This document shows positions 11,374 through 55,035 of a stretch of 64,000 nt of DNA, piece after piece (the stretch's first letter is position 1; each line of letters begins with the position of its first letter). The position numbers and the translations under genes were made by a program. Below the pieces are notes generated by a model. It was given only the letters and a program-made list of their open reading frames with translations. It did no database searches and had not been told where the DNA came from. The stretch is from a virus: IMG/VR virus record IMGVR_UViG_3300037088_000361, positions 32,001-96,000 of that record, one strand, 5' to 3'.

Positions 11374-11431
11374 TATTCACCTGTGCCCTGACTTCTCATC
11401 TACTTAGTAGAGGAAAGTCAGAGGATTTGAG

Positions 11432-11983
11432 ATGGCTGTTGTACTTTACAATTTCATGAACCAGCCAATTCTGGCCAGTGCGCTCGTGCAGGTCTCGGAT
11501 AGCGACAGTTTTTATTTTCCCGAGGACAATGGCCATTATGGCTATGCTTTTAACGGCTCCCACTACACGAACGGAATACAAGGTTCCCCCCCGCTCGTGG
11601 CCTCTTGGTATTCCGAGGGTGTGGGTCCATACCGGGGGTCTTCCGCCCCCTTCCCGTCCTATGGACTCATCCTTCTCGGGAGAGCGAACCTTACCATCCT
11701 TGACGAGAGCACCTCGGCGCTGAAGCTGTGGATGACCTTCCTCCTCAGTGACTTACTACTGCTCACCGACAATTTTGCCTTGGGCAACCAGAACTACTCC
11801 CCACCTGCGCTAGTGGGATACATCCCCTCGGGACTTTCCTACGCCAACGGGGTCATATCAGTAGTGTATAGCCCCGATGCAGGGGCGGAAAGCTTGGTTT
11901 ATCCCCCTCAGCCAGCAACGAGCAGTTTGATTGTAAATATTGATTTTGCTACTGACTCTGCTTGGTTGGATACTTCTCTATAA
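11432..11983 (+). CDS. Hypothetical protein
   Basis: 183-aa ORF with GAGG RBS, divergent from the tail operon. Confidence 0.65.
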   Translation: MAVVLYNFMNQPILASALVQVSDSDSFYFPEDNGHYGYAFNGSHYTNGIQGSPPLVASWYSEGVGPYRGSSAPFPSYGLILLGRANLTILDESTSALKLWMTFLLSDLLLLTDNFALGNQNYSPPALVGYIPSGLSYANGVISVVYSPDAGAESLVYPPQPATSSLIVNIDFATDSAWLDTSL

Positions 11984-12027
11984 AACGAAAAAATGAACTT
12001 TCTAAAGCCTTTATGGGGGGAAGGTTT

Positions 12028-12993
12028 ATGTTCATATATCTTATCGTCAACCATAAGACTGGCAAATATTATGTCGGGCAACATAAAGGTAACAACCTAA
12101 AGCAGTACCTTCAGAGGAAATTTTGGGATGCTAAACACCAACGCAGTGGAAGTTCCCATCTATACAATTCCATGAGAAAGTACCCTCAGTCCACGTTGTG
12201 GTCCATCCACGCTCTCCGTTCCGACATTCAGACCAAGGAGGAACTTGACCAGACCGAGCGAGATTTCATTAAGTTCCTGAAATCCCAAGACTCAGAATAC
12301 GGCTACAACATTTGTCGGGGTGGGGAAGGGCACACTGGTCCACTCTCTCTTGAAACCAGAAAAAAAATAGGTATAGCCAGCAAAAAATCATGGTTGAATC
12401 CAATTTATCGTGCTCAACTAACGAATGAAACTAAAAGACGATGGGCTAACCCTGAATTTCATACTAGAGAAACAGAGGCCCTCAGGCAAAGAAATTCCCA
12501 GCCTGAAAGATGTGCCAAGATATCCACATCTAGTAGAAAGGCTTGGGCAACTCCTGAATTCCGCATCAAGATATCTAAGGCTATAAAAGAAGCGCAAACC
12601 ACTCCTGAATTCCATACTTGGCGGTCAGAAACCAGCAAACGGATGTGGGCTGACCCAAGCTATCGTGCCAAACACTCGGAAGCGATGAATAAACTTCGGT
12701 CCGACCCTGAATACCGTATAAAGGTAGCCGAAGCTGTTAGGAAAACAAGCACTAACCCTGAGAGATGTGCCAAAATCGGCAACGCTACAAAACAAAAATG
12801 GAATGACCCAGAATACAGAGCCAAACAATCCGAAGCTAAGAAACGGATGTGGGCTGACCCAAGCTATCGTGCCAAGATATCTGAATCTAGGAAAAGGATG
12901 TGGGCTAATCCTGAATTTCATACCAAGACTTCCGCAGCCATTAGGAGAGGAAAATCAAAAATAGGAGAATCAAATGTTGCAGAAAACCGTTGA
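12028..12993 (+). CDS. GIY-YIG homing endonuclease with C-terminal W(A/N)xP(E/S)(Y/F)R tandem repeats
   Basis: FIYLIVNHKTGKYYVGQ and GYNI motifs; start re-assigned to ATG 12028 after GGAAGG. Confidence 0.85.
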   Translation: MFIYLIVNHKTGKYYVGQHKGNNLKQYLQRKFWDAKHQRSGSSHLYNSMRKYPQSTLWSIHALRSDIQTKEELDQTERDFIKFLKSQDSEYGYNICRGGEGHTGPLSLETRKKIGIASKKSWLNPIYRAQLTNETKRRWANPEFHTRETEALRQRNSQPERCAKISTSSRKAWATPEFRIKISKAIKEAQTTPEFHTWRSETSKRMWADPSYRAKHSEAMNKLRSDPEYRIKVAEAVRKTSTNPERCAKIGNATKQKWNDPEYRAKQSEAKKRMWADPSYRAKISESRKRMWANPEFHTKTSAAIRRGKSKIGESNVAENR

Positions 12994-29146: not shown

Positions 29147-32100
29147 TACCCACCCCCGCTCCGCAGCCAATTTTGGACGCCCTTGAACCCATCCGTAATG
29201 GTCTTGGCAGCCTGGGCGACAGCCGCCTGCGTGTCGAATACAGAGAACTCACTGCTTTCTCTGGGCGTTGGGGGACCGCTTCCCGCGTGAGTGCTAACGC
29301 CGGTGTTGGTGTGGATGTTAGTGACTTGGACGACAGGGGCGGCGGGGGATGAAGTCTTGTCGGCCGCTTTTCCTATACCTTGTTCGGCTGCGATGGTGGC
29401 GGCACCACCTGGCTTTAGCACATTTAACCCAAGGGGGTTTGCTAAAGAGGGATCCAGCTTTCCGCTCCGAGCCAAGTCGGAAAGACCGCTGCCTAGGGTG
29501 TCCGCATCCAGAAATCCTCCTCCTGACCCCGCCTTCTGTTTAAGCGTTGCTAACTCCATGTTAAACGCATTCACCCTCTCTCCTGTGGAGGCGCTCCCCT
29601 TTGCCAACTCCAGTTCCGTCTTACCCTTCTTTATCGTCTCTGTCAAATCATCCCTTCGGGCTGTTAACGAGGCAAGCATCGTGGGGTTATCCTTTGCCCT
29701 CTTCATTGCATCAGTGAGGTCCTTCTCCTGTTGTTCCAAGGTCTCTAGGCTCCCTCGATAACTGTCGGGTCCCGTTTTCGCTATTTCCTTGGCTACCTCG
29801 GCTTGGTCCTCTGCGCTGGCTCGGTGACTGATATGGAAGACGACTAGCAAATCATCGATGGCGTTTCCTATGGAGGTCAGTATACCGTACACCTTCATCT
29901 CTAGGATATCCTTAATTTGGCTTAAGTAGTCATCGCTCGTGGTCATTGCCTTCCCCAAGCTATCAGCCATCGTCTCCTTGAGCCTTTCCCCCTCGGTCTT
30001 GTTACTTTCTTCTAGCTCTTTCCACAGCTTTCCGCCCGGCAACATAGCATCCGCCATGTTGCCCAAGAAGTCGGTTTTCCAGCCTTCCTCTGCCTTCGCT
30101 TGCAAGCCCATATCGGTGGGAAGTCCTCGCTTGAGGTCCTCCACAGACACCCCGGTATACCGTGCTGCTTTTTTATATTGTTCGTCCCCAAGCTTACCGG
30201 ACTTCAAATCGTTGACCCAAGTAGCCGCCAAGTCCCCCATGGTACTGCGTACATCGTTAAGAAACTCAGGAGGCAACTGCATTTCCTCAGAAAACTTCCT
30301 CTGTTGTAATTCATAGTTTCCCATAAGCCCAGGATTCGTCATGAAGGTGTGTGCAACATCTGCATCAGTTTTTCCTAGTTTTCCTCCTGCACTCCGATTA
30401 ACCATTGCTAATACAGCGGAAACCTTGCCTAGATTAAGTGATGCCGCTACTGCTGGAGGCATGTTAATCATATGGGAAAGCTGTATGGCATTTTGTATGT
30501 TAGCGTCCTGACCAAAATTCCCCACTGTTGTACGAGACTCTAACCCTGCGGTCAACTGTCCGATAGCAGTCCCTACCAGTCCGGTCCTCTCGGTCCCTAC
30601 GTTTGCTATCTCTTGGTTGGCAAGTTGGCGTGCCCTTTGTCTAGCTGCCTCACTTTCAATCAAATCTTGGGCACTGCCGATGCCCTGTTCCTTCATATAC
30701 TTTTCTGCATCTTCTCTCCCCAGCCCCTTTGCTGTATAAACATCCCGCAAACTATCGTATGCGGATTGGGCGCTTCTGTCTACACCCTCCTTCGCCGACG
30801 CTGTCATGACATCCTTTACACCCTGTGGCATCTGTGATAGGATATAGGCTCCCATCTCTGGCGTAGTCTTGGTGGCAAAGAGCCCCTTCATCGTATCCTC
30901 CAACTGCTCCACTGTAAGGAGTCCAGTGTGGCCAAGCCCCCTGAGTGCTCCCGTAACAGTATCAACCCCACGTGCCATATGGGTAAACTGCCCGGATATC
31001 TCATCGAGAATCTGGATGTACTTTATTGATGTTAGCCCCGCCGCCTTGATGTCTATGTTGAGCTTGTTGAAGAAGCTGTCGGTCTGCTCCAAAGACAAGT
31101 GGTATTGCTGAAGAAGCTTCATTATGGTCTCGACGGCTTGAGGCGTATCCAGCCCTGCTAGCCTTGCTCCCCCGAATACAGTGGAGGCTATCCCCCCGCC
31201 TACCGGTCCACCAGCCCTTCCTATGATGTTGTGGGTAAGGTCGTTGTTGGCATCCGAGAGGTCGGAAACCCCGACCCCAAACTTGTTTATGGCGGCGACC
31301 ATCTCATAGTTTATTTTCTGGGTCTGGCCATACATATTAACGCCGGGGGTTAGGTTAGTACGCACGTTCTGGAAGGCTTGGGCTGCTCCCGTCTGCCCTC
31401 CGGCAAACAGACCACTTGTTCCCATTTTACTGTAGATGTCTTGATTACTCTTAATCATCCCGTCAAACAGTTCTTTCATGGCCGTCACTACCCCTACGAC
31501 TACCCCAATTGGTCCAGCCAACTCCGTTGCTGTTCCTGCAAGTGCCTCACCACCACCCCTGATAGTAGCTCCGACCGCCTCTAGGCCAGCGCCCCCCACC
31601 TCTGCCCCCTCTGCTGCCCCAGCAAACTCAGTCGCAAATGATTTCACCCCCTTTGCTGCACGCCCCGCCCTCCATCTTCCAATTCTCCCTGTATGCCCGC
31701 TGTACTTCATCATCTCTGTTACTAGGTCGTCATGGCTCATACTTGCGATTTCCTGGGCACGCCGCCTGTTTTCTGGTTCACTTCTGAGTTGTTTTACAAC
31801 ATCCTTGTCTATCCTGCCCTTTTCATTCAATTTTAGCTCACCCAGAAGGGTTCCGATAGGACCACCATGTAATGCTGCCTTCTTTTGAAATAGCTCAGCC
31901 CCTGCCTGCCGTTGTTCCACCGCTCCTCGGCGCATATAACCCACCTGCCTGCCCAAGCTGGAAAGGCGTTCAAAGGGAGCCATCAATGGGCCCAAGGTTC
32001 CCATTTGACTAAAGGCTTCTTTAAGGGCTGAGCCTATGGAATGAATCATCCCCGGCATCCTTGAAAACTTCTGGGTAATTGCATCAAGGCTATATCCCAT

Positions 32101-39872: not shown

Positions 39873-40103
39873 GAGTATTATCCCTTGTCTGAAAAATTTT
39901 ACATATGACTAACCCACTACAAATTGACCATCAAGATTCAACTCTATCCGAAAATTCCACAGACTCCGTGAAAACCCATCTCTCCGAGAAAGTTTGCCGG
40001 TGATTTAAGATTTCCACTACCGACCTCATAGACAGCCGCACGCTATGACCACAAATTTTTCACATCACGCAAGAGGGGTTTGACAATTCAGGAGAGAGGT
40101 ACA

Positions 40104-42008
40104 ATGCCGAAGAGTATTGAAATGACACCTTTTCAACAGTATATTTATAAAAGTAAATATGCTCGGTGGCTTCCCGAGAAAAATCGTCGGGAAGATTGGC
40201 CGGAAACAGTCCACAGATACATTGACTTTATTTCTAAAAAAATCCCAGAGGACATCAGGGAAGAGACCAGCAAGGAGCTTGAAAATGCAATCCTGAACAT
40301 GGAAGTTATGCCCTCGATGCGAGCTATGATGACCGCAGGGAAAGCGGCAGAGCGCGATGAAGTCGCAATATTCAACTGTTCTTACATTGCTATTGATGAC
40401 CCGAGAGCATTTGACGAGGCTGTTTACTTATCTATGTGTGGAGTAGGGGTGGGATTTTCCGTTGAGCGCCAATGCATAAACCAACTACCTACCATTGCTG
40501 AAAACTTTTATCAAGAAGATACCACCATCAAGGTCAGGGACTCAAAAATTGGATGGGCAACAGCCTTCCGTCAATTGATAGCCTTGCTCTATGGGGGGCT
40601 TATACCAAAGTGGGACCTCAGCTCCTTGCGTCTGGCAGGTGCTTTACTTAAGACATTTGGTGGTCGGGCGTCTGGACCGGAGCCACTTGACCGTCTTTTT
40701 AAATTCACTGTTCAACTTTTCAGGAATGCCGCAGGAAGAAAACTTACCAGTATTGAATGTCATGACTTGATGTGTATGATTGCAGATGTTGTGGTCAGCG
40801 GTGGGGTAAGACGTAGCGCCTTAATTTCCTTCTCCAATCTTTCTGATGACCGTATGCGAAACGCCAAGACAGGACAGTGGTGGATTGAGAATCCTCAGCG
40901 AGCACTGGCCAACAATAGTGCAGTCTATACGGAAAGGCCAGAAATCGGGGTATTCATGCGGGAGTGGTTATCTCTTTACGAGTCCCGTTCCGGCGAGCGA
41001 GGAATATTCAATCGTGAAGCGGCTAAAAAACATATTGCCGCCGCAGGAAGACGTAAGTGGAAGGATATAGATTTCGGTGGGAATCCTTGCATGGAGATAC
41101 TTTTAAAAAGTACAGAAACTTGTAATTTGACTGAGGTTGTAACTCGTCCAAACGATACCAAGAAAATCCTTAAGGATAAGATTTACAAGGCAACCATCTT
41201 GGGAACACTCCAATCTACCTTCACTGACTTTCGGTACCTTCGTAAGGCATGGCAAAAAAACGCCGAGGAAGAACGGCTATTGGGGGTCAGCCTGACCGGA
41301 ATCATGGACAATAAGATTACATCCACCAATGATTCCCACCTTGAGGCTTTACTTGATGAGCTACGCCTATATGCTATTCAAGTCAATAAGGAGTGGGCGG
41401 AGAAGCTTGGAATAAGCCCATCGGCGGGAATAACCTGCGGAAAACCTTCCGGCACTGTGTCTAACTTGGTTAATGCCTCCCCAGGAATGCACGCTCGCCA
41501 TAGCAAGTATATTTCTCGGGCGGTACGGGAGAATCGCACAAGTCCCATCTCTGTATTTCTCAAAGCAGCAGGAGTGCCATGGGAGCCAGAAGTATCAAAA
41601 CCTAACGATGTTGATGTGTTTTATTTTCCGTTGGAGTCCCCCGAAGGGTCGGTAACTCGGGATGACCTTGCAGCGGTCCAGCAGCTTGAGGTTTACCTCA
41701 CCTACAAGCAGCATTGGACTGAACATAACCAAAGCTGCACAATTTCCGTTCGGGAGCACGAGTGGCTTGATGTGGGCTCATGGGTCTTTAATCACTTTGA
41801 CTCTATCTGCGGGGTTTCTTTCCTTCCTTTTTCCAATTCAGTATATAAGCAAGCCCCATACACTGAACTTACTGAGCAGCAGTACCTTGATGCAGTTGCC
41901 AAGATGCCGGTTATCGACTGGTCTAAGCTGGTGGAGTTTGAGAAGGAAGACCATACCACGGCTATGAAGGAATATGCGTGTTCGTCGGCAACTGGGTGTG
42001 CTTTGTAG
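40104..42008 (+). CDS. nrdJ: Class II (adenosylcobalamin-dependent) ribonucleotide reductase
   Basis: PSMR, NCSY, GGVRRSA, GNPCMEI, CNLTEV, KPSGTVS and C-terminal C..C pair; no R2 gene adjacent. Confidence 0.92.
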   Translation: MPKSIEMTPFQQYIYKSKYARWLPEKNRREDWPETVHRYIDFISKKIPEDIREETSKELENAILNMEVMPSMRAMMTAGKAAERDEVAIFNCSYIAIDDPRAFDEAVYLSMCGVGVGFSVERQCINQLPTIAENFYQEDTTIKVRDSKIGWATAFRQLIALLYGGLIPKWDLSSLRLAGALLKTFGGRASGPEPLDRLFKFTVQLFRNAAGRKLTSIECHDLMCMIADVVVSGGVRRSALISFSNLSDDRMRNAKTGQWWIENPQRALANNSAVYTERPEIGVFMREWLSLYESRSGERGIFNREAAKKHIAAAGRRKWKDIDFGGNPCMEILLKSTETCNLTEVVTRPNDTKKILKDKIYKATILGTLQSTFTDFRYLRKAWQKNAEEERLLGVSLTGIMDNKITSTNDSHLEALLDELRLYAIQVNKEWAEKLGISPSAGITCGKPSGTVSNLVNASPGMHARHSKYISRAVRENRTSPISVFLKAAGVPWEPEVSKPNDVDVFYFPLESPEGSVTRDDLAAVQQLEVYLTYKQHWTEHNQSCTISVREHEWLDVGSWVFNHFDSICGVSFLPFSNSVYKQAPYTELTEQQYLDAVAKMPVIDWSKLVEFEKEDHTTAMKEYACSSATGCAL

Positions 42009-42051
42009 TGTTGGGATTTGTGAACCATAGAATTTGGTATTAAAGGGTGCT

Positions 42052-42750
42052 ATGGAATACAATTTTAACAACTCTAAACTAATATGTGGTATCTACCGAA
42101 TCTTTCTGATTGGGACAGAACATAGTTATGTGGGTCAGGCTAAAAACATCAAGGTTAGGTGGCGGCAACACAGGTGGGGTCTGTTGAAGGGAGTAAACAG
42201 GGCTGTTAGGCTTCAAAGAGCGTGGAACAAGTACGGTGAAGACGCTTTCCAGTTTGAGATTCTTGAGGAGTGCTTGTGTGAACCTAACATTCTCCTTCTA
42301 AGAGAGCAACATTGGATGGACAAGCTTCGGGCGTATAAGGCGGGATTCAATTCTACCCCTCATGCTGGATTATCAACCTTTGGCATGCGGTTTTCTCCTT
42401 CAACAAGAAAGAAACTATCTGAAAAACGAAGAGGTAGGGTAACCTCAGAACAAACTAGATTAAGGCTTAGCCAAAAGATGAAAAATCGGGTATTTTCTGA
42501 AGAGCATTTGAGGCATTTGGCAGAAGCCGGACGGCGACGTATGTTGAATTCTCCAGACCGTAATAAACTTGGAGAATGGTCCAAGAATCATCCGCAGATA
42601 GGAGCAGCCAACGCTTTTTATGGTAAACATCATTCAGAAGAAACTAGAAAGATTATCTCGGAAAACCATATTGGTAAAAACCACTCAGAAGAAACCAAGG
42701 AGAAAATCCGGCAAGCACATTTAGCTAGAAGCACCCCCACCCTTGTTTGA
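42052..42750 (+). CDS. GIY-YIG homing endonuclease with NUMOD3 repeats
   Basis: GIYRI....SYVGQA and HSEETRK repeats; immediately downstream of nrdJ. Confidence 0.88.
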   Translation: MEYNFNNSKLICGIYRIFLIGTEHSYVGQAKNIKVRWRQHRWGLLKGVNRAVRLQRAWNKYGEDAFQFEILEECLCEPNILLLREQHWMDKLRAYKAGFNSTPHAGLSTFGMRFSPSTRKKLSEKRRGRVTSEQTRLRLSQKMKNRVFSEEHLRHLAEAGRRRMLNSPDRNKLGEWSKNHPQIGAANAFYGKHHSEETRKIISENHIGKNHSEETKEKIRQAHLARSTPTLV

Positions 42751-43891: not shown

Positions 43892-44452
43892 ATGTCCTGT
43901 GTCGTAGGAGTGGTATCTGAAGGCAAGGTGTGGATGGGGGCGGACAGTGCTGCTTCGGACGGTGAGGATATGCTTTCCCTTGTCAACCGTAAGATATTCT
44001 TCAATGGTCCCCTATTGATTGGCTGCGTCGGTTCCATCCGCATGACCCAACTTATCCAATACAAGCTTTTTGTCCCAGAACCTCCCAGTATGGTGGTCGG
44101 GGACCGTGACCTTATGAGATATATGGCCATTAGCTTCGTGGACGCCGTAAGGAAGGTATTCCAAGCCAACGACTTCTCGTTAATCCATGACGACCACTCC
44201 ACTGAGGGCGTGTCTCTCATCGGATACCGTGGTCACCTTTTTCGTATGGAGGGGGACCTCCAGATAGTGGAGAGGGTGGATGGATATGAGGCAATAGGCT
44301 GTGGGAGCCCCTACGCCCTCGGCTCCCTGTTCGAGAGCGGGAAGGAAACACCCTTCATGCGGGTGACTAACGCCCTGACCGCATCGCACCACTTCAGCGC
44401 CCACGTGCGGCCGCCGTACAAGATTATGAGCGGGGACGACATCGGTAAATAA
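43892..44452 (+). CDS. HslV/proteasome-beta-like Ntn-hydrolase peptidase
   Basis: M-S-C-V-V-G...MGADS, K.F, IG..GS and AIGCG..YA.G; N-terminal nucleophile position is Ser. Confidence 0.75.
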   Translation: MSCVVGVVSEGKVWMGADSAASDGEDMLSLVNRKIFFNGPLLIGCVGSIRMTQLIQYKLFVPEPPSMVVGDRDLMRYMAISFVDAVRKVFQANDFSLIHDDHSTEGVSLIGYRGHLFRMEGDLQIVERVDGYEAIGCGSPYALGSLFESGKETPFMRVTNALTASHHFSAHVRPPYKIMSGDDIGK

Positions 44453-44492
44453 CCGGCGCAATAAGTCAACTATAAGGCTCAGAAATAAGAAG

Positions 44493-44882
44493 TCACATAG
44501 ATTCTCCGTTGTGTTTTTTCAGATACTCTATTGCTTTCAGCAATGTTGATATATTTTCTTTGAAATTACCAATCCCAGCGTTGCAGTTCATACAAAGCAG
44601 TTCACGGGGGTTACCGGTGGTATGATTGTGGTCCCCACATAGCTTTCTTTTATCTTTGCGGCCACAGATAACACAGACCTCATTTTGTTTTTTCATCGCG
44701 TCGTTGTATAAATCTATGTTCCACCCGGTGCGTTTCAAGGAGCATATATAGTTGGCGCTGTTTTGACATTTACGACATAGAGACTGTACTTTGAAACGCC
44801 TTGTGTTGTGCTTGGTGAACTTGGTTATATCCATCTCCCCACACGAGCAGCCACGGAACTCACGGTCTATCCATTTTCCCAT
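44493..44882 (-). CDS. Endonuclease VII-like HNH protein
   Basis: QN..C.IC...L..DH.H.TG..R.LLC..CN.G.G.F.E motif. Confidence 0.85.
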   Translation of the reverse strand: MGKWIDREFRGCSCGEMDITKFTKHNTRRFKVQSLCRKCQNSANYICSLKRTGWNIDLYNDAMKKQNEVCVICGRKDKRKLCGDHNHTTGNPRELLCMNCNAGIGNFKENISTLLKAIEYLKKHNGESM

Positions 44883-44940
44883 AAAATCCTCCTACTTAGG
44901 AGATGGTAGTCAAAAAATAATCAAATTTTTTAACTTTTGG

Positions 44941-44949
44941 TGGTATTAT
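44941..44949 (+). promoter_or_regulatory. Extended -10 promoter (TGgTATTAT) for the leader/tRNA operon
   Basis: TGn plus TATTAT about 20 nt upstream of the leader ATG, in an AT-rich upstream region. Confidence 0.55.
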
Positions 44950-44969
44950 ATAGAAGTAGGGAGATTGTC

Positions 44970-45080
44970 ATGAATATGGCCACTCACATCACTCTAGGCG
45001 ACATTGAAGCAGTAGGTATAGCCGAAGCCGCCGTCGTGTGTGAGGGAGGCGATACGTCGCCTTCGGGAGGGTTGGGATAG
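44970..45080 (+). CDS. Attenuator leader peptide MNMATHITLGDIEAVGIAEAAVVCEGGDTSPSGGLG
   Basis: GGGAG RBS 6 nt upstream; codons 10-28 encode only G/D/I/E/A/V/C; overlaps alternative hairpins. Confidence 0.75.
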   Translation: MNMATHITLGDIEAVGIAEAAVVCEGGDTSPSGGLG

Positions 45081-45107
45081 AAAATCCTAATTTTGAATCC
45101 CGAAGGC
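45045..45107 (+). promoter_or_regulatory. Anti-antiterminator (45045-45064) and antiterminator (45059-45107) hairpins
   Basis: GGAGGCGA-TACG-TCGCCTTC; GCCTTCGGGA pairs perfectly with TCCCGAAGGC, with inner stem GGTTGGGAT/ATCCTAATT. Confidence 0.75.
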
Positions 45108-45138
45108 ACCTAGAAAGCTTAGGTGCCATTTTTGTTTT
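45105..45138 (+). terminator. Intrinsic terminator (attenuator) upstream of the first tRNA
   Basis: GGCACCTA-GAAAGCT-TAGGTGCC followed by ATTTTTGTTTT. Confidence 0.8.
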
Positions 45139-45149
45139 ACAGCACATTT

Positions 45150-45227
45150 GTTCCGGTGCGGCGAGTGGCTAAGCCAGTTGCCTTACAAGCAACCAATTCG
45201 GGGGTTCGAGTCCCTCCCGGAACACCA
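45150..45227 (+). tRNA. tRNA-Val(TAC)
   Basis: GTTCCGG/CCGGAAC acceptor, GTTGC-CTTACAA-GCAAC, TTCGAGT loop, CCA. Confidence 0.9.
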
Positions 45228-45238
45228 AAATTGGATAT

Positions 45239-45316
45239 GCCCCGATAGCTTAGTGGCTTCAAAGCGCCACCTTCACACGATGGAGAACACAGGTTCGAGT
45301 CCTGTTCGGGGCACCA
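45239..45316 (+). tRNA. tRNA-Val(CAC)
   Basis: GCCCCGA/TCGGGGC, loop TTCACAC, one anticodon-stem mismatch, CCA. Confidence 0.85.
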
Positions 45317-45322
45317 AGTAAG

Positions 45323-45371
45323 TCCGCTGAGGTCCAGCGGCAGGACACCGGCTCTGACACGCCGGTCAACG
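45323..45371 (+). pseudogene. 5' half of a degenerate tRNA (D-arm and anticodon-like arm; Gln CTG or Val GAC ambiguous)
   Basis: GTCC-AGCGGCA-GGAC D-arm and ACCGGC/GCCGGT stem; no T-arm or 3' acceptor strand. Confidence 0.4.
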
Positions 45372-45410
45372 TAAACAGGGGCTGCGACAATGCCCCCACA
45401 AGATTTAAGT

Positions 45411-45543
45411 CTTGCCTTGTGGCGGCGAAAGCCGCAGCAGCCTGTGGAAAGGCTGTAAATAGAGAGGCATCCAAGACTGGCTCGTCCCGTTCGATTCGGG
45501 ATATAGTGTCTCTGGGGAATAGTAGGCCAGTCCACAAGGCGAG
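45411..45543 (+). ncRNA. Unknown structured RNA
   Basis: 12-bp closing stem CTTGCCTTGTGG/CCACAAGGCGAG, GAAA tetraloop hairpin, T-loop-like TCCCG-TTCGATT-CGGGA. Confidence 0.55.
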
Positions 45544-45550
45544 TTTTTTA

Positions 45551-45628
45551 GCGGGAATAGCTCAGTTGGTAGAGCGCAACCTTGCCAAGGTTGAGGTTTC
45601 ACGGGTTCGAACCCCGTTTCCCGCTCCA
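45551..45628 (+). tRNA. tRNA-Gly(GCC)
   Basis: GCGGGAA/TTCCCGC, CAACC-TTGCCAA-GGTTG, TCCA. Confidence 0.95.
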
Positions 45629-45633
45629 AGTTT

Positions 45634-45709
45634 GGGCCTGTAGCTCATTTGGCAGAGCGCCTGTTTTGCAAGCAGGAGGCGAAGGGTTCAAATCCCTTTA
45701 GGTCCACCA
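45634..45709 (+). tRNA. tRNA-Ala(TGC)
   Basis: G3-U70, loop TTTGCAA, ACCA. Confidence 0.93.
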
Positions 45710-45713
45710 AGTT

Positions 45714-46253
45714 TTAGGCATACTTAGACATTCCTCGTGATTGTCTTCCGTTGCCTTTGTTACGACCGCAGAAAGTTGGAGTTTGGCTGGTGCAGTTAGG
45801 GCATAATAGACGTACATTGTTTGGTTTGCTGTCTCCAGCGTTTCCATCTATGTGGTCTACAACCATGGTGATGGGTTTGTCGCACCAAATAGGAGGAAGT
45901 CCACAGATTTCACATCTGTTTCCTCTTTTTTCAATGAGGATGTTACGGATGGTGCTCCTTTTGGTTACTTGACCTAACTCAAACCTTTTTACGGCCTGAG
46001 AGTAGAGCGACCCCCTACTTACCGGCTTAGGTTTCTTTGGTCTTTTGGTGTTTGTTATCGTTGCAGAGCACGAGCTAGAGCAGTAAATGTTTGTAAAGCG
46101 TTTATTGTATGAAATAGGTTCTTGACAGCATAAACATCTTTTAGGGTTGAGCAGGTACCTAGCCTCATTTTTAGCTGTTCTGCTTACATTACTGCAAGAT
46201 AGGGAACAGTAAGTGTATCTGGTTTCTCTTTTGCAGATTAAGCAGTTATTCAT
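45714..46253 (-). CDS. HNH endonuclease with Zn-binding CSxSC repeats, antisense inside the tRNA array
   Basis: CEICG...VDHIDGN..D....N.RLLCPNC.SQT motif. Confidence 0.88.
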   Translation of the reverse strand: MNNCLICKRETRYTYCSLSCSNVSRTAKNEARYLLNPKRCLCCQEPISYNKRFTNIYCSSSCSATITNTKRPKKPKPVSRGSLYSQAVKRFELGQVTKRSTIRNILIEKRGNRCEICGLPPIWCDKPITMVVDHIDGNAGDSKPNNVRLLCPNCTSQTPTFCGRNKGNGRQSRGMSKYA

Positions 46254-46263
46254 GCAGTTTTTG

Positions 46264-46338
46264 GCGGGACTGATGTTAATGGCAGCATGTCACCCTTCCA
46301 AGGTGAACGTACCGATTCGACTTCGGTGTCCCGCTCCA
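46264..46338 (+). tRNA. tRNA-Gly(TCC)
   Basis: GCGGGAC/GTCCCGC, TCACC-CTTCCAA-GGTGA, TCCA. Confidence 0.9.
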
Positions 46339-46381
46339 ACCTCCTAATTAGGGGGTCGAAAGTTAGTTTTCGTTAGGTTTT

Positions 46382-46455
46382 GCGGGTATGGTATATTGGC
46401 TGTGCCCAACCTTCCCAAGGTTGTGAAACGGATTCGATTTCCGTTACCCGCTCCA
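46382..46455 (+). tRNA. tRNA-Gly(CCC)
   Basis: GCGGGTA/TACCCGC, CAACC-TTCCCAA-GGTTG, TCCA. Confidence 0.9.
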
Positions 46456-46462
46456 AGATGTA

Positions 46463-46607
46463 GTCGCTCCAAGGGCTGTCGAAGCTGACGAGCGGCGAGG
46501 TCTCGCAAACAGGGACCCCGAGTAAGGGGGGCTGTGGTGGTCTCCCCGAAACGGGTCCCTACGTGGCGGGACCTGCGGATGACTGACCTAACCAGTCGGT
46601 TGTCCCA
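46463..46607 (+). ncRNA. Unknown structured RNA (long interrupted hairpin with AGUA/GAA loop-E-like motif)
   Basis: AGGTCTCGC/GCGGGACCT, AGGGACCC/GGGTCCCT and GGGGGGC/GTCTCCC stems, plus flanking small hairpins. Confidence 0.5.
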
Positions 46608-46616
46608 AATTTTTGT

Positions 46617-46691
46617 GGGCTCGTGGTGTAGTGGGAGCACGTATCGCTGGCAGCGATAAGGTCGGGAGTTCAAATCTCCCCGAGTCCACCA
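46617..46691 (+). tRNA. tRNA-Ala(GGC)
   Basis: G3-U70, TATCG-CTGGCAG-CGATA, ACCA. Confidence 0.9.
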
Positions 46692-46695
46692 AGTT

Positions 46696-47064
46696 TGGCT
46701 GGTAGTACTATGTCAGAGGCACCGTTATGGTGTGGGCTATCAACGGCTCATGGGTGGAATTCCCACGGGGCTACCAGCCATTATTTTATGGGCGGCGTGG
46801 TCTGTGTTGCAACACAGATGCACTAACGGGCGTGCTCCATGTACAAGGGTACGCTAAGCGTAACATGCCGCCCACCAAGTTTGCTGCTGAATAGAGAAGG
46901 CAGACGAAGTTGATTTTACTGTCCTGAGTTCAGCAGCCAAGTTTTGGCGGTCCATGCTCGCAGAGGGTGTGGGTGCTGGGTTGAGTTGGGTAAAGTAGGG
47001 GCTCCGTTTTATCAGGGTACCAAGTTCTGAGAGGAGTCAAAGCTATCCCGGCGTTACCCGCCAA
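46696..47064 (+). ncRNA. Four tandem stem-closed, CCA-ending non-tRNA RNAs (46696-46780, 46790-46877, 46883-46939, 46944-47064)
   Basis: Each has complementary 5'/3' ends and is separated by the same short A/T-rich spacer seen between the tRNAs. Confidence 0.55.
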
Positions 47065-47071
47065 GAGTTTA

Positions 47072-47148
47072 GGGTATGTGGAGCAGTTGGAGTGCTCGCC
47101 ACTCTGTCACAGTGGAGACCGGGGGTTCGAGTCCCCTCATACCCGCCA
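47072..47148 (+). tRNA. tRNA-Asp(GTC)
   Basis: GGGTATG/CATACCC, CCACT-CTGTCAC-AGTGG, G73, CCA. Confidence 0.93.
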
Positions 47149-47156
47149 TTTGAAAT

Positions 47157-47228
47157 GTGCCCATAACTCAGCGGTAGAGTGCCATCTTGACAGGGTGGAG
47201 GCGGTAGGTTCGACTCCTACTGGGCGCA
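47157..47228 (+). tRNA. tRNA-Val(GAC), no encoded CCA
   Basis: GTGCCCA/TGGGCGC, CCATC-TTGACAG-GGTGG, TTCGACT loop. Confidence 0.88.
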
Positions 47229-47273
47229 CATTGATAGACTTTTGAGTATCTATATAAGAGGTGCTCAGGGTCT

Positions 47274-47903
47274 ATGCTCTATACGGTCTACAAGACGACT
47301 AACCTTGCCAACGGCAAGTACTACTTTGGCGTCCACAAGACCGATAACCCAAATGATGACTATCTTGGGTCGGGGAAGTATATTAAAGCTGCTATAGCCA
47401 AACACGGTGAGGCGGCCCTTAAGAAAGAGGTTTTGTTTATCTACCTCGACGCTGAATCAGCGTTTGGTAAGGAAGATGAGCTAATCCAAACTTGGCGTGG
47501 TCGAGACCCACTGTGTATGAACTTGAGGAAGGGTGGCTCAGGTGGGTTTGACTGGATAAATAAAAAGCTCAATCAAGAATGGAGAAAGAGGGCAGCACAG
47601 ACAACAAATATCCACATCTTCAAACGTCGGGAATCGGATATTGAGTATAAGAACTTGGATGTTGCTCGTAGGAGAAGAAATTTTCTGTCCCTTTCTAGCG
47701 AATGGTATAAACAACGGGGGATGGCGGTTGCTAAAATAGGATGTGCAGCAGCGGCAAAAGTGAATTTCAAAGCGCAAGAACATGAGCTAGTTTTAAAATT
47801 ATATAAGCAAGGAATCTCGAAAAGTCAGATAGTTCGTCAAGTTGGCGTTGCAAAAAGCTCTGTTTTCTTGTGGATTAAACAAGCTTTGTTTTTGGGCGTG
47901 TAG
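47274..47903 (+). CDS. Seg-like GIY-YIG homing endonuclease with C-terminal HTH
   Basis: TVYKTTNL.NGKYYFGVHKT....DDYLGSG; C-terminal GISKSQI..Q.GV.KSSV..W. Confidence 0.88.
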   Translation: MLYTVYKTTNLANGKYYFGVHKTDNPNDDYLGSGKYIKAAIAKHGEAALKKEVLFIYLDAESAFGKEDELIQTWRGRDPLCMNLRKGGSGGFDWINKKLNQEWRKRAAQTTNIHIFKRRESDIEYKNLDVARRRRNFLSLSSEWYKQRGMAVAKIGCAAAAKVNFKAQEHELVLKLYKQGISKSQIVRQVGVAKSSVFLWIKQALFLGV

Positions 47904-47969
47904 CTCATCCGGGAGAGTGCAGCTTTCGCAAGGCTGAGGCGGTGGGTTCGAGTCCCATTACGTCCACCA
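47894..47969 (+). tRNA. tRNA-Ala(CGC)
   Basis: G3-U70, CAGCT-TTCGCAA-GGCTG, ACCA. Confidence 0.9.
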
Positions 47970-47976
47970 AATTCGT

Positions 47977-48050
47977 GGCCCGTTCGTCTAGGGGTAGGAC
48001 GGCAGATTCTCAATCTGCAAACAGGGGTTCAATTCCCCTACGGGCTACCA
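47977..48050 (+). tRNA. tRNA-Glu(CTC)
   Basis: GGCCCGT/ACGGGCT, GCAGA-TTCTCAA-TCTGC, CCA. Confidence 0.92.
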
Positions 48051-48100
48051 AGTTTCAACCCCCGCCATGCTAGGGGGAACACTGCATGACGGGAGGATAG

Positions 48101-48352
48101 ATGTTTACACTGTGGCATTGGTTTTTGAATTTCTTTTTTTGGCTGGTAAACTTGGTAATTTGGGTGATAAAAAACCCGGATGCCTTATTTACTTGGTTTT
48201 CCAAATGGGTAGTAATCGGGTGGATGGTGGTTCACACTATTCACTGGGCACGAGTGGAATACGTGAGGCTTTCCATTTCCACCGAGAGAAAGATTGCCAA
48301 GATTCGCCAGCCAGTGGACCCGAGTAAGGAGTCGGCTGAGGAAGAAGAGTAG
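48101..48352 (+). CDS. Small Trp-rich membrane protein
   Basis: 83 aa, GGGAGG RBS, hydrophobic N-half. Confidence 0.55.
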   Translation: MFTLWHWFLNFFFWLVNLVIWVIKNPDALFTWFSKWVVIGWMVVHTIHWARVEYVRLSISTERKIAKIRQPVDPSKESAEEEE

Positions 48353-48532
48353 GTATGAAAACGTGCTCTGCTTGCGGATTTAAGGGACGGTGGTTGACCC
48401 ATTTCTGTCCTGGACCCCCCGGACACGGGATTACTGACCTTGGGAACGGTTATATTTCCGTCGAGACTTTTCCCCTCTATCCGGCACAGGTGGTTGACCT
48501 TTCTGAAGCCAAGGAGCGAGATTTTAAGATTA

Positions 48533-48609
48533 GCACGGATACCCAAGCGGCCAAAGGGGATGGTCTGCAAAACCATTAGTCGTCAGTTCAAATCTGACTC
48601 CGTGCTCCA
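48533..48609 (+). tRNA. tRNA-Cys(GCA)
   Basis: GCACGGA/TCCGTGC, ATGGT-CTGCAAA-ACCAT, U73, CCA. Confidence 0.9.
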
Positions 48610-48616
48610 ATTTTAT

Positions 48617-48691
48617 GGCCTCATCGTCTAGCGGCTAGGACGGCAGACTTTCAATCTGCAAAGGAGAGTTCGACTCTCTCTGGGGCTACCA
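48617..48691 (+). tRNA. tRNA-Glu(TTC)
   Basis: GGCCTCA/TGGGGCT, GCAGA-CTTTCAA-TCTGC, CCA. Confidence 0.92.
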
Positions 48692-48696
48692 AATAT

Positions 48697-48791
48697 GGCG
48701 GACAGCACAGGCGTGCAGGCGGGTCCTATAAACCTGAAGTCGCCCTAGATAGGGGTGTCCGGCGTGGGTTCGAGTCCCCGGTCCGCTACCA
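48697..48791 (+). tRNA. Non-canonical tRNA with TAT anticodon (Ile?) and long variable arm
   Basis: GGCGGAC/GTCCGCT-A-CCA, short D-arm, CGGGT-CCTATAA-ACCTG, about 25-nt variable region, bulged T-stem with TTCGAGT. Confidence 0.7.
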
Positions 48792-48800
48792 AATTTTTTG

Positions 48801-48828
48801 TTGACAAATCATTTTTCAGTTGTATTAT
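48801..48828 (+). promoter_or_regulatory. Sigma70-type promoter upstream of tmRNA
   Basis: TTGACA-16 nt-TATTAT. Confidence 0.7.
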
Positions 48829-48917
48829 GTAGATGAAGACTGGAACACTCCAGTGGTTACAAAAGGGCTAAGGCCGCTCACACTGGGTAGCGGGGGATAA
48901 CCTGCGGTGTTCCGTTT

Positions 48918-49281
48918 GGGGGCGTCAGGTTTCGACGGGGACGCTCATTCTCAAGAGGCATGCCGGGGGAGAGCCTAACACCACCCGTAATCGGTAAAGG
49001 GCAATGTACTTGCAGAACCACTTAGCATGTACGCTATGGCCTAAAGCGATTTAGGTCACATCCACTCTTCCAGACTCGCATGTAGGAGACCGGATGTCGA
49101 TATGGCGGGAGTAGTCTTGGCCAAGCTTGTAAGCCAAGGCGAATTACTGAAAGCTAGTCACGGCTCTTGTATCGCTCAGTACCTTGGAGCTGTGGCGAAA
49201 AGAAGTGGAACTGAGATAAGCATGTAGTCTCTTGACGGTGAAGTCTTTCGGACGGGGTTTCGATTACCCCCGCCTCCACCA
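48918..49281 (+). ncRNA. ssrA: tmRNA (ssrA); predicted tag (A)AEPLSMYAMA* at 49012-49044
   Basis: 5' GGGGGCGTCAGGTTTCGACGGG, GCATG/CATG helix, 3' GACGGGGTTTCGATTACCCCCGCCTCCACCA, G3-U70, 364 nt. Confidence 0.92.
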
Positions 49282-49458
49282 AAATTTTAGAAGGTGTATG
49301 AACCTGCTGCAATATCTCGGATGTGGCATGTTTACCTTGGTGATGGTAAGCGTCTTGGGTCTGTGGGTTTACGATTATGTTAAGTATACCAAGCAGTTTT
49401 GAACGGGCGTAGTTAAGCTTGGTAAGACTTTATCTCTCTTATATAGAGGAGACACGAA

Positions 49459-49620
49459 ATGGCAAACGCAGAGATGGCACCAACGCCGCAGGGGACTAGG
49501 CTGTCCTCTGAACAGTTTGAAAAAGCCGTTCTTGAGTTTCAGAGTAATAAGAATGAGACCCGTGCGGCTGAACTTTGGGGAATCATAGAAAACCACCTAT
49601 TTCACTCAGTGGTTAGATAA
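49459..49620 (+). CDS. Small hypothetical protein (53 aa)
   Basis: Hand translation MANAEMAPTPQG...HSVVR; GAGGAG RBS. Confidence 0.5.
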   Translation: MANAEMAPTPQGTRLSSEQFEKAVLEFQSNKNETRAAELWGIIENHLFHSVVR

Positions 49621-49630
49621 TTAAATTTGA

Positions 49631-49706
49631 GCGGGGTTGACACATTGGTTGCGTCCCGGCTTCCCAAGCCGTGGTTAAGTGAGTCCGATTCTCACACCCC
49701 GCTCCA
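49631..49706 (+). tRNA. Second, divergent tRNA-Gly(CCC)
   Basis: GCGGGGT/ACCCCGC-TCCA, loop TTCCCAA; T-loop TCCGATT and weak D-stem. Confidence 0.7.
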
Positions 49707-49749
49707 ATCTTCCAAAAATCCAGTATTACCTCCCAGAGGAGACAAAATC

Positions 49750-49989
49750 ATGGACCCCATAAAAATTCCAACTGGTTCAGTCGTTGAACTCCGTGAACTT
49801 ACCCTTGTTGATATTGTGGAGGGCAACGATATGCTCGGGACCGCTCGTATGGTTGACCAAGCGCCTATCACCGTCACGGTGGCCAGCGTTTCGGGCAGTA
49901 CGATAAAGGACACGGATGGGAATACCTACTCTCTCGTCCCGTGGGATAGCGGGGTATTCTACGGGATATGGAGCGTCCTCACCCCCTAA
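49750..49989 (+). CDS. Hypothetical protein
   Basis: Start re-assigned to MDPIK after GAGGAG. Confidence 0.6.
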   Translation: MDPIKIPTGSVVELRELTLVDIVEGNDMLGTARMVDQAPITVTVASVSGSTIKDTDGNTYSLVPWDSGVFYGIWSVLTP

Positions 49990-50032
49990 GATTAATCCGT
50001 ATGCAGTATTAACCCTCTGGAGGCCAAAACAA

Positions 50033-50452
50033 ATGGAAAAACTTACAATCAATGAAGCATTGTCCGTGAAGAAGATGCTGGTCGAGCGCCACAATGAGCT
50101 TGTATCGCTGCGCAACGAGAACTCCGCCGTACGTACCAGCTACCGTGGAATGAAGGGGGACACCCCGGAGACCGTCGTTCCCGTGTACGACATCGTGGCC
50201 ATGGATACAATCATCTCGAACCTGTCCCGTGAGATGCGCAAGCTTGACATGGCCATCAAGGCTACCAACGCCGTGACACCGGTCAAGGACTACGAGTATG
50301 ACGACAGTATCCTTGGCGAGCTTGTACCAGCGGTAGGCAAAAGTGGCAGGGGACCCTCTGGTCTGTGTGCCTGTTGCGAGGGGGCTGACGGTCCGTGCGC
50401 CTGTTGTGGAAAGACCGGACGAGAGTCCAAGAAATCTAAGAAGAATCGTTAG
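50033..50452 (+). CDS. DIP1984-like coiled-coil protein with C-terminal CACC..CACC
   Basis: LTINEAL...K.L..R..EL and ..RKLD.AI.ATN..T pattern recalled from the DIP1984-like family; GGAGG RBS. Confidence 0.5.
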   Translation: MEKLTINEALSVKKMLVERHNELVSLRNENSAVRTSYRGMKGDTPETVVPVYDIVAMDTIISNLSREMRKLDMAIKATNAVTPVKDYEYDDSILGELVPAVGKSGRGPSGLCACCEGADGPCACCGKTGRESKKSKKNR

Positions 50453-50458
50453 TTTGAC

Positions 50459-50646
50459 GGGGGCTGATTAGAAGAGTGTGGCTAGTCGGAGCACTTCCAA
50501 ACTTCCGACGATAAAGATAGTGAGTGAGGAACAATGACAACCTTCGGGTTTTAACCTGCTTCTGTTGATAGTTGTTTCTTGCTTTTTCAGTTGTAGACTT
50601 TGTTGTGTCGATGGTTGTTTACCACGCCACTGACTTGTCAGTCCCC
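50459..50646 (+). ncRNA. Candidate structured RNA downstream of the DIP1984-like gene
   Basis: Closing stems GGGGGCTGAT/GTCAGTCCCC and GTGTGG/CCACGC; AACC-TTCG-GGTT hairpin; GTTG repeats. Confidence 0.5.
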
Positions 50647-53400: not shown

Positions 53401-55035
53401 ATGCCAATAAGAATTCAAAATCCCCCGTGGAAACCAGCCTCTATCAGTGTCGTTGACGGCATCATCATCACCCCTGTGGAGTCTTGGAACGCTACTGTTT
53501 CCTACTCTCAAGGACTGGCGACCAGGTATCAAGGCTCTTCATACCTTTCCCTTAAAGATAACAACCGTGGTCATACCCCTGCAGGCGGCTCAAAGTGGTG
53601 GGGGCTGATTGCGCAGGGCGTCATGGGTACCACCGGTTCGAGTGGGTATACGGGTTATACCGGTCCCGGTAATTTTACAGGTTACACAGGATACACTGGA
53701 CCGGGAAACTTCACTGGATACACAGGCTACACCGGACCAGGTGCCTTTACTGGTTATACTGGATATACCGGTTACACCGGTTACACAGGATACACTGGAC
53801 CGGGAAACTTTACTGGGTACACTGGGTATACTGGACCCGCTGGAAGCGCCGGAGGCGCTGGAGCGACTGGATATACAGGCTACACGGGCTATACTGGTTC
53901 TGGCAATTTCACTGGTTATTCAGGATACACTGGAACAACTGGGTATACGGGGTATATGGGACCGGGAAACTTTACCGGCTACACAGGTTACACAGGCTAT
54001 ACCGGCTACACGGGACTTGGCAACTTCACTGGCTACACTGGGTATACTGGATACACCGGTCTCGGAAATTTTACTGGTTATACGGGGTATACTGGTCCTG
54101 AAGGAGCTGGTTCGGTAGGAGCTACTGGCTACACCGGTTATACCGGTTATACTGGACCGGGGAACTTCACAGGCTACACAGGCTATACTGGTCCGGGAAA
54201 CTTCACTGGTTATACTGGCTATACTGGCTATACCGGTTACACCGGCTACACCGGTCCTGCCGGTGCCGGAAACACTGGCTATACTGGCTATACTGGCTAT
54301 ACTGGCTATACTGGCTATACTGGCTATACTGGTCCCAGTATCACCGGTTATACTGGATACACTGGAAGAACAGGATATACTGGTTATACTGGTCCCGCTG
54401 GTGCTGGAGCGACAGGCTACACTGGATACACTGGTCCCGGTAATTTTACTGGCTATACTGGTTATACAGGTTCTGGAGGAGGAGGAACAGGATATACTGG
54501 TTACTCAGGGTATACTGGATATACTGGTCCCGGTAATTTTACTGGCTATACTGGTTATACAGGTTCTGGAGGAGGAGGAACAGGATATACTGGTTACTCA
54601 GGGTATACTGGATATACTGGTCCCGGTAATTTTACAGGTTACACCGGATACACGGGTTACACCGGATACACAGGCGGCGGCGAGTATTCGGTCGTCACCT
54701 TCATTATCGACGGTGGTGGAATCCCTCCTGACACGGGGTCAAAAGGGTTCGTACAGGTGCCATTTGCCTGCACTATCACAAGTTGGACACTCTTAGCCGA
54801 CCAAGTGGGAAGCTGCAGTATAACGATAAAAAAGTCCACCTACGCAGCCTTCCCAACTACTGCAAGCATAGTAGGAGCTGCTCTCCTTACGCTGGTATCA
54901 CAGCAGTCCAATTCCTCCAGCAGCTTGCCGGGATGGACTACCGGGGTCTTATCGGGTGATGTGCTGGAGTTTTACCTGACCAGTGTCAGCACCTCGACCA
55001 GGATAACTGTGGAGTTGCAGGTAACCAAGATATGA
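53401..55035 (+). CDS. Gly-Tyr-Thr repeat (collagen-like) fibre protein with N-terminal CBM5/12-like motif
   Basis: W....SY..G...Y.GS.Y.S.......P.....W, then about 350 aa of GYT/GPGNFT repeats, then a globular C-terminal domain. Confidence 0.85.
53644..54675 (+). repeat. 9-nt-period coding repeat (ACN GGN TAY), including a 93-nt duplication (54430/54523) and a perfect ACTGGCTAT run near 54274-54330
   Basis: Directly visible in the sequence. Confidence 0.95.

Follow-up and report, generated by a model that had tools for sequence, protein, structure and literature searches.

Gene content of the tRNA array

The window analysed here, a stretch of 64,000 nucleotides (positions 32,001 to 96,000 of the IMG/VR virus record IMGVR_UViG_3300037088_000361), harbours a dense array of transfer RNA (tRNA) genes at 45150-49706. 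ARAGORN with default settings predicted 14 tRNAs and one transfer-messenger RNA (tmRNA) in this region, all on the plus strand, with the first tRNA starting at 45150 and the last one ending at 49706, in agreement with the limits first proposed. Thirteen of the 14 tRNAs decode codons beginning with G (the GNN row), presenting all 12 anticodons usual for that row and a second Gly-CCC, whereas Cys-GCA is the only regular member from outside the row. An earlier reading of this DNA from its letters alone (the sequence-only reading) had described a complete GNN set with C at anticodon position 36 (C36) in 13 of 15 tRNAs. Both statements are borne out by the formal scan, in which the anticodon calls hold and the fifteenth gene corresponds to a UAU gene described below. 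The longest run of consecutive GNN decoders in the window comprises 11 genes. The Rfam tRNA model RF00005, applied at its gathering score (29 bits), confirmed 13 of the 14 ARAGORN tRNAs with 48.6-66.5 bits. The second Gly-CCC gene gave no match to this model even at E<=10, and is called by ARAGORN only. Over its 4,557 bp the array reaches a density of 3.1-3.3 tRNAs per kb, with 14 default calls, or 15 if the UAU gene is accepted; for a viral tRNA gene cluster, Morgado and Vicente 2019 (PMC6409571, accessible text) require 15 or more tRNA genes and no fewer than 2 per kb.

The array begins with tRNA-Val(UAC) (45150-45227, 52.2 bits in Rfam), tRNA-Val(CAC) (45239-45316, 61.9 bits), tRNA-Gly(GCC) (45551-45628, 66.5 bits), and tRNA-Ala(UGC) (45634-45709, 64.5 bits). 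These are followed by tRNA-Gly(UCC) (46264-46338, 48.9 bits), the first copy of tRNA-Gly(CCC) (46382-46455, 48.6 bits), tRNA-Ala(GGC) (46617-46691, 63.2 bits), tRNA-Asp(GUC) (47072-47148, 60.3 bits), and tRNA-Val(GAC) (47157-47229, 57.2 bits), the latter being the only tRNA of the array that does not encode its CCA end. Further downstream are located tRNA-Ala(CGC) (47894-47969, 53.4 bits), tRNA-Glu(CUC) (47977-48050, 62.9 bits), tRNA-Cys(GCA) with the discriminator base U73 (48533-48609, 60.7 bits), and tRNA-Glu(UUC) (48617-48691, 57.2 bits). The second copy of tRNA-Gly(CCC) (49631-49706), which has the odd T-loop UCCGAUU, closes the array downstream of the tmRNA. In the related locus L011 a Gly-CCC gene likewise follows the tmRNA, and in locus L002 one lies at the distal end of the array. 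The three Ala genes possess G3:U70 and the Gly genes start with G1-C2-G3, features with a role in tRNA identity in E. coli.

A tRNA-like gene with the anticodon UAU is located at 48697-48791 on the plus strand, and had been listed as Ile(UAU). The gene itself is real. Its 95 nt fold into a cloverleaf that has a long variable arm and ends in A73-CCA, and it was called by ARAGORN at -ps95 only, being missed by default ARAGORN and by the Rfam tRNA model; against the Rfam tRNA-Sec model it reached 23.6 bits, under the gathering score of 47. A standard tRNA-Ile(UAU) has U33 and a short variable loop, and the gene departs from that form in its C33 (anticodon loop CCUAUAA) and its long variable arm. 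Homologues were found in L003 (18808-18900) and L011 (18476-18569), both as default ARAGORN calls, and in L059 (15934-16024); they have U33, but possess the long arm too. When the four sequences are compared, pairing is maintained by compensatory changes on both sides in 12 of 20 pairs. Within the sub-clade of the window the gene sits just upstream of the tmRNA, and it is absent from the related genomes G001, G002, G003, and G005. It may accept Ile, Leu, or another amino acid. ATA codons are common, with 13.6 per 1000.

The tmRNA, which the sequence-only reading had missed, is encoded in one piece at 48918-49281 on the plus strand. It matched RF00023 over its full length (model positions 1-374) with 124.4 bits, the threshold being 47 bits, and its predicted tag is AEPLSMYAMA*. 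A sigma-70-like promoter match (TTGACA, 16 nt, TATTAT; 11/12) is present on the same strand at 48801-48828, 90 nt before the tmRNA, and is regarded as a lead only. In the sub-clade of the window, one-piece tmRNAs lie beside the GNN array and their tags end in YAMA or YAFA. The tmRNAs of the large relatives (G001 242851-243196; G002 30867-31271; G003 187543-187893) are marked as permuted by ARAGORN, lie near another tRNA array (array 5, see below), and have tags ending in MAAAA or AAHA. A search for the SmpB gene found none in the four records searched.

A spacer of the type CCA-AGTTT/AATTT had been described behind most tRNAs of the array. An A directly follows CCA in 12 of the 13 window tRNAs with encoded CCA, and to that extent the description stands; the strict trailer [AG]N[AT]TT is present in 6 of the 13 only, and it is not specific to the GNN array, as it occurs in all arrays. 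Across five genomes CCA is encoded in 218 of 228 tRNAs, and the trailer fits [AG]N[AT]TT in 95 of these 218 (44%, versus 1.6% in the background). The leader base at position -1 is T in 66% of the 228 tRNAs. The trailer motif is the same as the RNase E core 'RN-WUU', and RNase E cuts near tRNA 3' ends, according to the accessible part of PMC5222698. In the array region, terminator-like sites (8 versus 7.9 in shuffled sequences) and promoter-like sites (10 versus 8.0) were detected at chance level, and no promoter of the array was found.

Upstream of the array, at a distance of 3 kb, the window harbours a ribonucleotide reductase (RNR) gene (40080-42008, plus strand; phrog_367, E 8.6e-169), which is the conserved anchor of the locus. 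Four homing or HNH-type endonuclease genes were found in or beside the array. A GIY-YIG homing endonuclease gene (42034-42750, plus strand; Pfam GIY-YIG 8.6e-09, NUMOD3 3.2e-10) follows the RNR gene, and an Endonuclease VII-like gene (44493-44882, minus strand; phrog_2633, E 3.1e-24) lies just upstream of the first tRNA. Inside the array are encoded an HNH homing endonuclease (45714-46253, minus strand; phrog_10822, E 2.4e-23, with a weak Pfam HNH_3 match of 9e-4, below the cut-off), and a homing endonuclease with a C-terminal helix-turn-helix (47274-47903, plus strand; phrog_314, E 1.1e-29; Pfam HTH_7 2.9e-07).

Inheritance of the array and partition of the tRNA set

With the RNR gene as a handle, 316 relatives were retrieved from IMG/VR and 80 loci were kept, of which the 18 most similar (62-76% identity) were analysed. 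Fifteen of these 18 loci possess a tRNA array downstream of the RNR gene, and 191 of the 198 tRNAs encoded in the 15 loci correspond to Val, Ala, Gly, Asp, Glu, or Cys. The seven exceptions comprise three long-arm UAU calls, an overlapping Leu call, and three tRNAs with undetermined anticodons. In L010, L015, and L016, where 7-10 kb of sequence behind the RNR gene could be inspected, no tRNA was found. Since L008 and L009, as well as L013 and L014, are near-copies, the arrays amount to about 13 distinct ones. Every locus of the 18 shares at most 5% of its 31-mers with the window, and the loci therefore represent diverged genomes. The sequence-only reading had stated that random grouping of tRNAs in related phages would make the set a chance subset; instead, the same membership is found in 15 of the 18 nearest loci, which shows the GNN grouping to be an inherited trait and no chance selection.

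An RNR tree of 23 rows places the 13 array holders in one well-supported clade together with the three tRNA-less loci, and the seven outgroup rows lack the array. The near-copies L008 and L014 were left out of the tree, as was L011, in which the RNR match is interrupted. Gene order is kept in the sub-clade of the window (L001, L002, L003, and L011), and is shuffled in other sub-clades with the same membership. The strand of the array is always the same, and the RNR gene precedes it by 3-6 kb. Cys, whose anticodon has A36, is present in the array of all 14 loci with a whole or near-whole array. The RNR match of L011 spans 2,808 bases (10001-12808) compared to the usual ~1,920, and the gene is probably interrupted by an insertion (intein, intron, or endonuclease gene).

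The sequence-only reading had also suggested the partition of a full tRNA set into separately attenuated operons, and the partition itself is supported by relatives rated complete (CheckV 100%). G001 (463 kb) and G002 (456 kb) encode 68 and 61 ARAGORN tRNAs, respectively, in five arrays, and G003 (332 kb) encodes 49 in arrays 1, 2, and 5. Array 1 is the counterpart of the window array and contains Val, Ala, Gly, Asp, Glu, and Cys. Array 2 contains Tyr, Leu (GAG, UAG, CAG, CAA), Pro, Met, and Phe; array 3 four Ser and Leu-UAA; array 4 Trp, His, Arg, Asn, Gln-CUG, and Lys; and array 5 Gln-UUG, three Thr, two Ile-GAU, two or three CUA suppressors, and Lys-UUU, with the tmRNA nearby. All 20 amino acids are called in G001, and the regions fetched from G004, G005, G006, G007, and G010 fit the same array membership. 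The arrays are 12-140 kb apart, and no GNN decoder was found outside array 1 in G001, G002, G003, and G005, nor in the regions fetched from G004, G006, G007, and G010. The contig of the window (G000) encodes 19 tRNAs and the tmRNA in total, including a second array outside the window (contig positions 10109-11365, minus strand) with Thr CGU, GGU, and UGU, a Gln-like gene, and Gln-UUG, which corresponds to array 5. The tRNAs of the other codon rows do cluster elsewhere in the relatives, in arrays that show no sorting by first codon base.

Some tRNA genes of the other arrays show unusual features. The Gln-like gene of G000, reported as 'tRNA-???(tg)' (10192-10264, minus strand), occupies the position of the second Gln-UUG of relatives, and shows U1:A72, G73, and an apparent anticodon loop of 6 nt. 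Upstream of Thr-CGU in the same array, at about 11366-11405, an apparent 3' half of another tRNA ending in CCA is visible, which no tool calls. Rare stray genes were detected in arrays 2 and 4, namely a 70-nt Cys-GCA in array 4 (G001 89965-90034), a Gln-UUG in array 2 (G001 347159-347231), and a Ser-GCU in array 2 of G010 (L156 8702-8789). None of the GNN arrays examined contains a stray gene. The 'Leu(UAA)' genes of G001 (64400-64476), G002 (271342-271419), and L059 (15496-15573) are just 77-78 nt long, the one of L059 has a short variable loop, and several Leu genes of G002 are also short (78-79 nt). A short variable loop is unlike the Leu tRNAs of bacteria.

Each complete relative possesses two or three tRNAs with the anticodon CUA, that is, amber suppressors labelled 'Pyl' by ARAGORN (G001 238747-239065; G002 25852-26052; G003 192202-192488), a sign that these genomes may recode TAG or read through it. 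In the record of the window, TAG ends 33 of 109 crude open reading frames. The complete relatives G001, G002, and G003 also encode two to three genes each of the RNA ligase family PF09414, and none was found on the fragment of the window. These genes are consistent with a capacity for tRNA repair, and point to a general conflict over tRNAs.

The distribution of tRNAs among the arrays was assessed by permutation of 23 amino-acid blocks among arrays of sizes 6, 5, 2, 6, and 4. Considering all arrays, the first codon base is common to 22 of 47 within-array pairs (p=0.0098). After removal of array 1 it is common to 12 of 32 pairs (p=0.78), and sorting by first codon base, as put forward in the sequence-only reading, is therefore not a general rule; the other four arrays are built of amino-acid blocks. 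The second codon base shows no enrichment (p=0.44). The five GNN amino acids fall into one array in 13 of 33,649 placements (~4e-4; 11 of 20,000 simulations), or ~3e-3 after correction for eight first- and second-base classes, and this concerns one ancestral event. Array 1 is also the only one with intermixed isoacceptors, with 0-3 same-amino-acid neighbours versus about 2 expected in five of five genomes, whereas all other arrays of at least 12 genes are blockwise (5-12 neighbours versus 1.3-3.3 expected, P<=0.022). As the isoacceptors are intermixed, array 1 is unified by the codon row plus Cys rather than by the amino acid.

Sorting by amino-acid chemistry was considered and rejected as at most marginal, with Grantham distances giving p=0.059 over the whole set of arrays and p=0.025 once array 1 is removed. 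The BLOSUM62 matrix gave p=0.09 for all arrays and 0.10 without array 1, and array 1 shows no coherence when taken by itself (p=0.88). GNN codons make up 32.7% of the codons, and every codon of each GNN box is used (11.8-32.4 per 1000), which fits a full replacement set rather than a supplement for rare codons. Amino-acid demand was likewise discarded as a rule for the grouping, because usage of Leu, Ser, and Thr is as high as that of the GNN amino acids.

The contig of the window is a single one of 127,843 bp with 52.3% G+C, and has no end repeats. CheckV rated the record as 41% complete, which implies a genome of about 310 kb, and we take it to represent part of the genome of a very large, uncultured phage from peat. 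The stretch recurs across many peat metagenome runs. Contigs from four further runs, none of them a candidate source of the record, tile 44000-50500 with zero differences and no supported joints, and the array is therefore not an assembly artefact. Other genes recognised on the contig encode a primase-helicase and a glycosyltransferase/methyltransferase. Pfam assigned no family to six of the seven large window proteins, and PHROG gave no match for six of nine window proteins. The search of the array against cultured phages with blastn returned tRNA-sized matches only, covering at most 4% of the query, and tblastn with the primase-helicase found no match in cultured phages. The search of bacterial genomes with the RNR revealed seven scattered contigs of metagenome-assembled genomes at 42-59% identity, from which no host was deduced. 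The window also encodes a protein of 2019 amino acids with six immunoglobulin-like He_PIG domains (1422-7481, minus strand), and a protein of 544 amino acids with collagen triple-helix repeats (53401-55035, plus strand), both likely to be surface or fibre proteins of the virion. Outside the window, the first 70 bases of the contig start with a run of 22 C, which may be an end effect of sequencing or assembly, or a real homopolymer.

Origin and maintenance of the grouping

We consider the locus to be an inherited module of a nearly complete phage tRNA set, which marks a clade of uncultured huge phages (about 330-460 kb), and whose grouping is a contingency of descent; we assign to this reading a probability of roughly 60%. 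The module would supply every decoder of the GNN row together with Cys, and in the sub-clade of the window it also includes the long-armed UAU gene and the tmRNA. Since the GNN decoders are all supplied, about a third of the phage codons could be translated independently of host tRNAs. The remaining codons would be served by the other arrays, most of which would lie off the contig in a fragment that is 41% complete. The genes share one strand with their neighbours, and are most likely transcribed as multi-tRNA precursors. In these, the U-rich leaders would be cleaved by host RNase P, and the conserved CCA-A(G/A)UUU trailers by an enzyme of the RNase E type. The products would be a set of decoders independent of the host, which matches current views of large phage tRNA sets in the accessible text of PMC7162821 and PMC11025619. 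The grouping would have been fixed once, in the ancestor of the clade, and kept because later rearrangements were local, with the homing endonuclease genes in or beside the array as a plausible cause of the local reshuffling. It is neither a general sorting by first codon base nor a response aimed at C36.

Several observations weigh against descent as the whole account. A random split would bring the GNN amino acids together with a probability of only ~4e-4, and history therefore leaves the origin of the grouping unexplained. Only the GNN array has its isoacceptors mixed at random expectation, so that the codon row truly unifies the array, which hints at more than inertia. Strays of Cys, Gln-UUG, and Ser-GCU occur in other arrays, and in no GNN array. 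In addition, transcription and processing are deduced from sequence features, no array promoter was found, and the 17 listed runs include no RNA run.

Several observations favour an array maintained by selection as a unit of co-expression, in which the decoders of the row, together with Cys, would be regulated jointly in time or dose and foreign tRNAs would be kept out. Membership is pure in 15 of 15 arrays even though the order is shuffled, the mixing of isoacceptors is unique to array 1, the chance of such a grouping is small, strays are confined to other arrays, and strand and place relative to the RNR gene are constant. However, no shared promoter, terminator, or leader was detected beyond chance, the other four arrays have no codon rule, and demand does not single out GNN, as Leu, Ser, and Thr are used equally. 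Local rearrangement would suffice for constant membership because the arrays lie 12-140 kb apart, and with one ancestor for all of them the 15 arrays are not 15 independent trials. Nor is any mechanism known that would make a cell or phage require GNN decoders collectively, and we regard joint regulation as unlikely. Slightly more doubtful still is the strict form, a true codon-row operon in which all decoders of one row, mixed, are co-expressed under selection. To our knowledge, the codon row has not been described as an organising principle for the tRNA genes of any genome. If it were true, some step of infection would act on GNN decoding as a class, with host shut-off, a staged take-over of translation, or defence as candidates.

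The origin of the set by local duplication and point mutation of anticodons appears improbable, despite a simple logic in the sequences: single substitutions link all members, at position 35 among Val, Ala, Gly, Asp, and Glu, and at position 36 between Gly-GCC and Cys-GCA. Neighbour pairs separated by one substitution are enriched within arrays overall (25/47, p=0.008), and the Cys and Gly genes of the window have G1, C2, and U73 in common. The enrichment is, however, lost without array 1 (14/32, p=0.48), and tRNA bodies that belong to different amino acids resemble each other within an array no more than across arrays (identity difference 0.001-0.022; permutation p=0.01 in G001, and 0.15-0.44 in four other genomes). 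Among the nearest relatives of Cys in five genomes, Gly ranks fifth, third, twice outside the top eight, and first, and each class looks like an ordinary member of its identity class, with G3:U70 in Ala and G1-C2-G3 in Gly. The sequence-only reading had further proposed a threat that recognises a shared feature of the anticodon loop, in which case a host nuclease or toxin would recognise C36 and the array would supply resistant replacements. Phage tRNAs have been proposed to offset VapC, PrrC, and colicins D and E5, as stated in the accessible parts of PMC11025619 and PMC7824862, and the relatives carry RNA ligase genes. Cys with A36 belongs to every full array, and all other decoder classes are supplied too, so that nothing specific to C36 was found. 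We know of no anticodon nuclease with specificity for the GNN row, and this defensive role is very improbable. We give least credence of all, close to none, to a chance subset or a mis-join in the assembly. The record is only a 41% fragment, but the same membership occurs in 15 diverged loci and in genomes rated complete, the contigs of four further runs tile the region without differences, and the GNN decoders of three unrelated phages are dispersed (8 of 23, 3 of 24, and 5 of 28 tRNAs), never more than two of them being consecutive.

Comparison with known systems

The unrelated phages used for comparison are Mycobacterium phage HyRo (Bixzunavirus), with 23 tRNAs and a tmRNA (eight GNN decoders, longest GNN run of two), Cronobacter phage S13, with 24 tRNAs (three GNN decoders, longest run of one), and the Xanthomonas jumbo phage XacN1, with 28 tRNAs (five GNN decoders, longest run of two). 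Similar to the window, they possess dense tRNA clusters on one strand with interspersed HNH endonuclease genes. As in the window, the tmRNA of HyRo lies within the tRNA cluster, and the tRNAs of XacN1 serve nearly all amino acids and include suppressors. Unlike the window, the three phages mix isotypes in a single cluster with dispersed GNN decoders, and they have mostly one or two anticodons per amino acid, compared to the full U34, C34, and G34 sets found here. Beyond the tRNAs, they show no likeness to the window in protein or DNA.

The tRNA cluster of phage T4 and the polycistronic tRNAs of E. coli are made as multi-tRNA precursors, which are processed by RNase P and RNase E with cuts immediately 3' of CCA inside A/U-rich spacers. 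The phage arrays resemble these precursors in their trailer sequences, 44% of which fit RN-WUU.

Huge uncultured phages of more than 200 kb have been described, in the accessible text of Al-Shayeb et al. 2020 (PMC7162821), to encode up to 67 tRNAs distinct from those of the host, tmRNAs, and tRNA repair genes. The relatives of the window agree with this description, with 49-68 tRNAs, tmRNAs, and RNA ligase genes. What they show in addition is a distribution over as many as five arrays with constant amino-acid membership, including one that is pure with respect to codon row; arrangement is not covered in the accessible text of that paper, and its supplementary tables may list these genes. In cellular genomes, tRNA arrays that are horizontally spread and add up to 43 extra tRNA genes, with a housekeeping set and a separately controlled subset, were reported in 2021 (PMC8421152, accessible text). 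Unlike the phage arrays, these are cellular and induced by translational stress, and sorting by codon class is not reported in the accessible text. In the literature searched, supplementary tables excluded, no description was found of a partition into conserved arrays, of a codon-row array, or of intermixed isoacceptors within one.

Large tRNA sets of phages are usually treated as unordered, but the full set described here is divided among conserved arrays. One of these, defined by a row of the codon table, stays pure across genomes too diverged to have long DNA words in common. A functional grouping would mean that the phages may control decoding capacity by codon class in the course of infection; a frozen accident would still provide a clean marker of the clade and a natural case of tRNA-array rearrangement. 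The conserved long-armed UAU tRNA, and the uniform trailer motif for the processing of phage tRNA precursors, are of further interest. Whereas large tRNA sets in huge phages and tmRNA-containing tRNA clusters in phages are already known, the codon-row-defined array had no counterpart in the literature searched.

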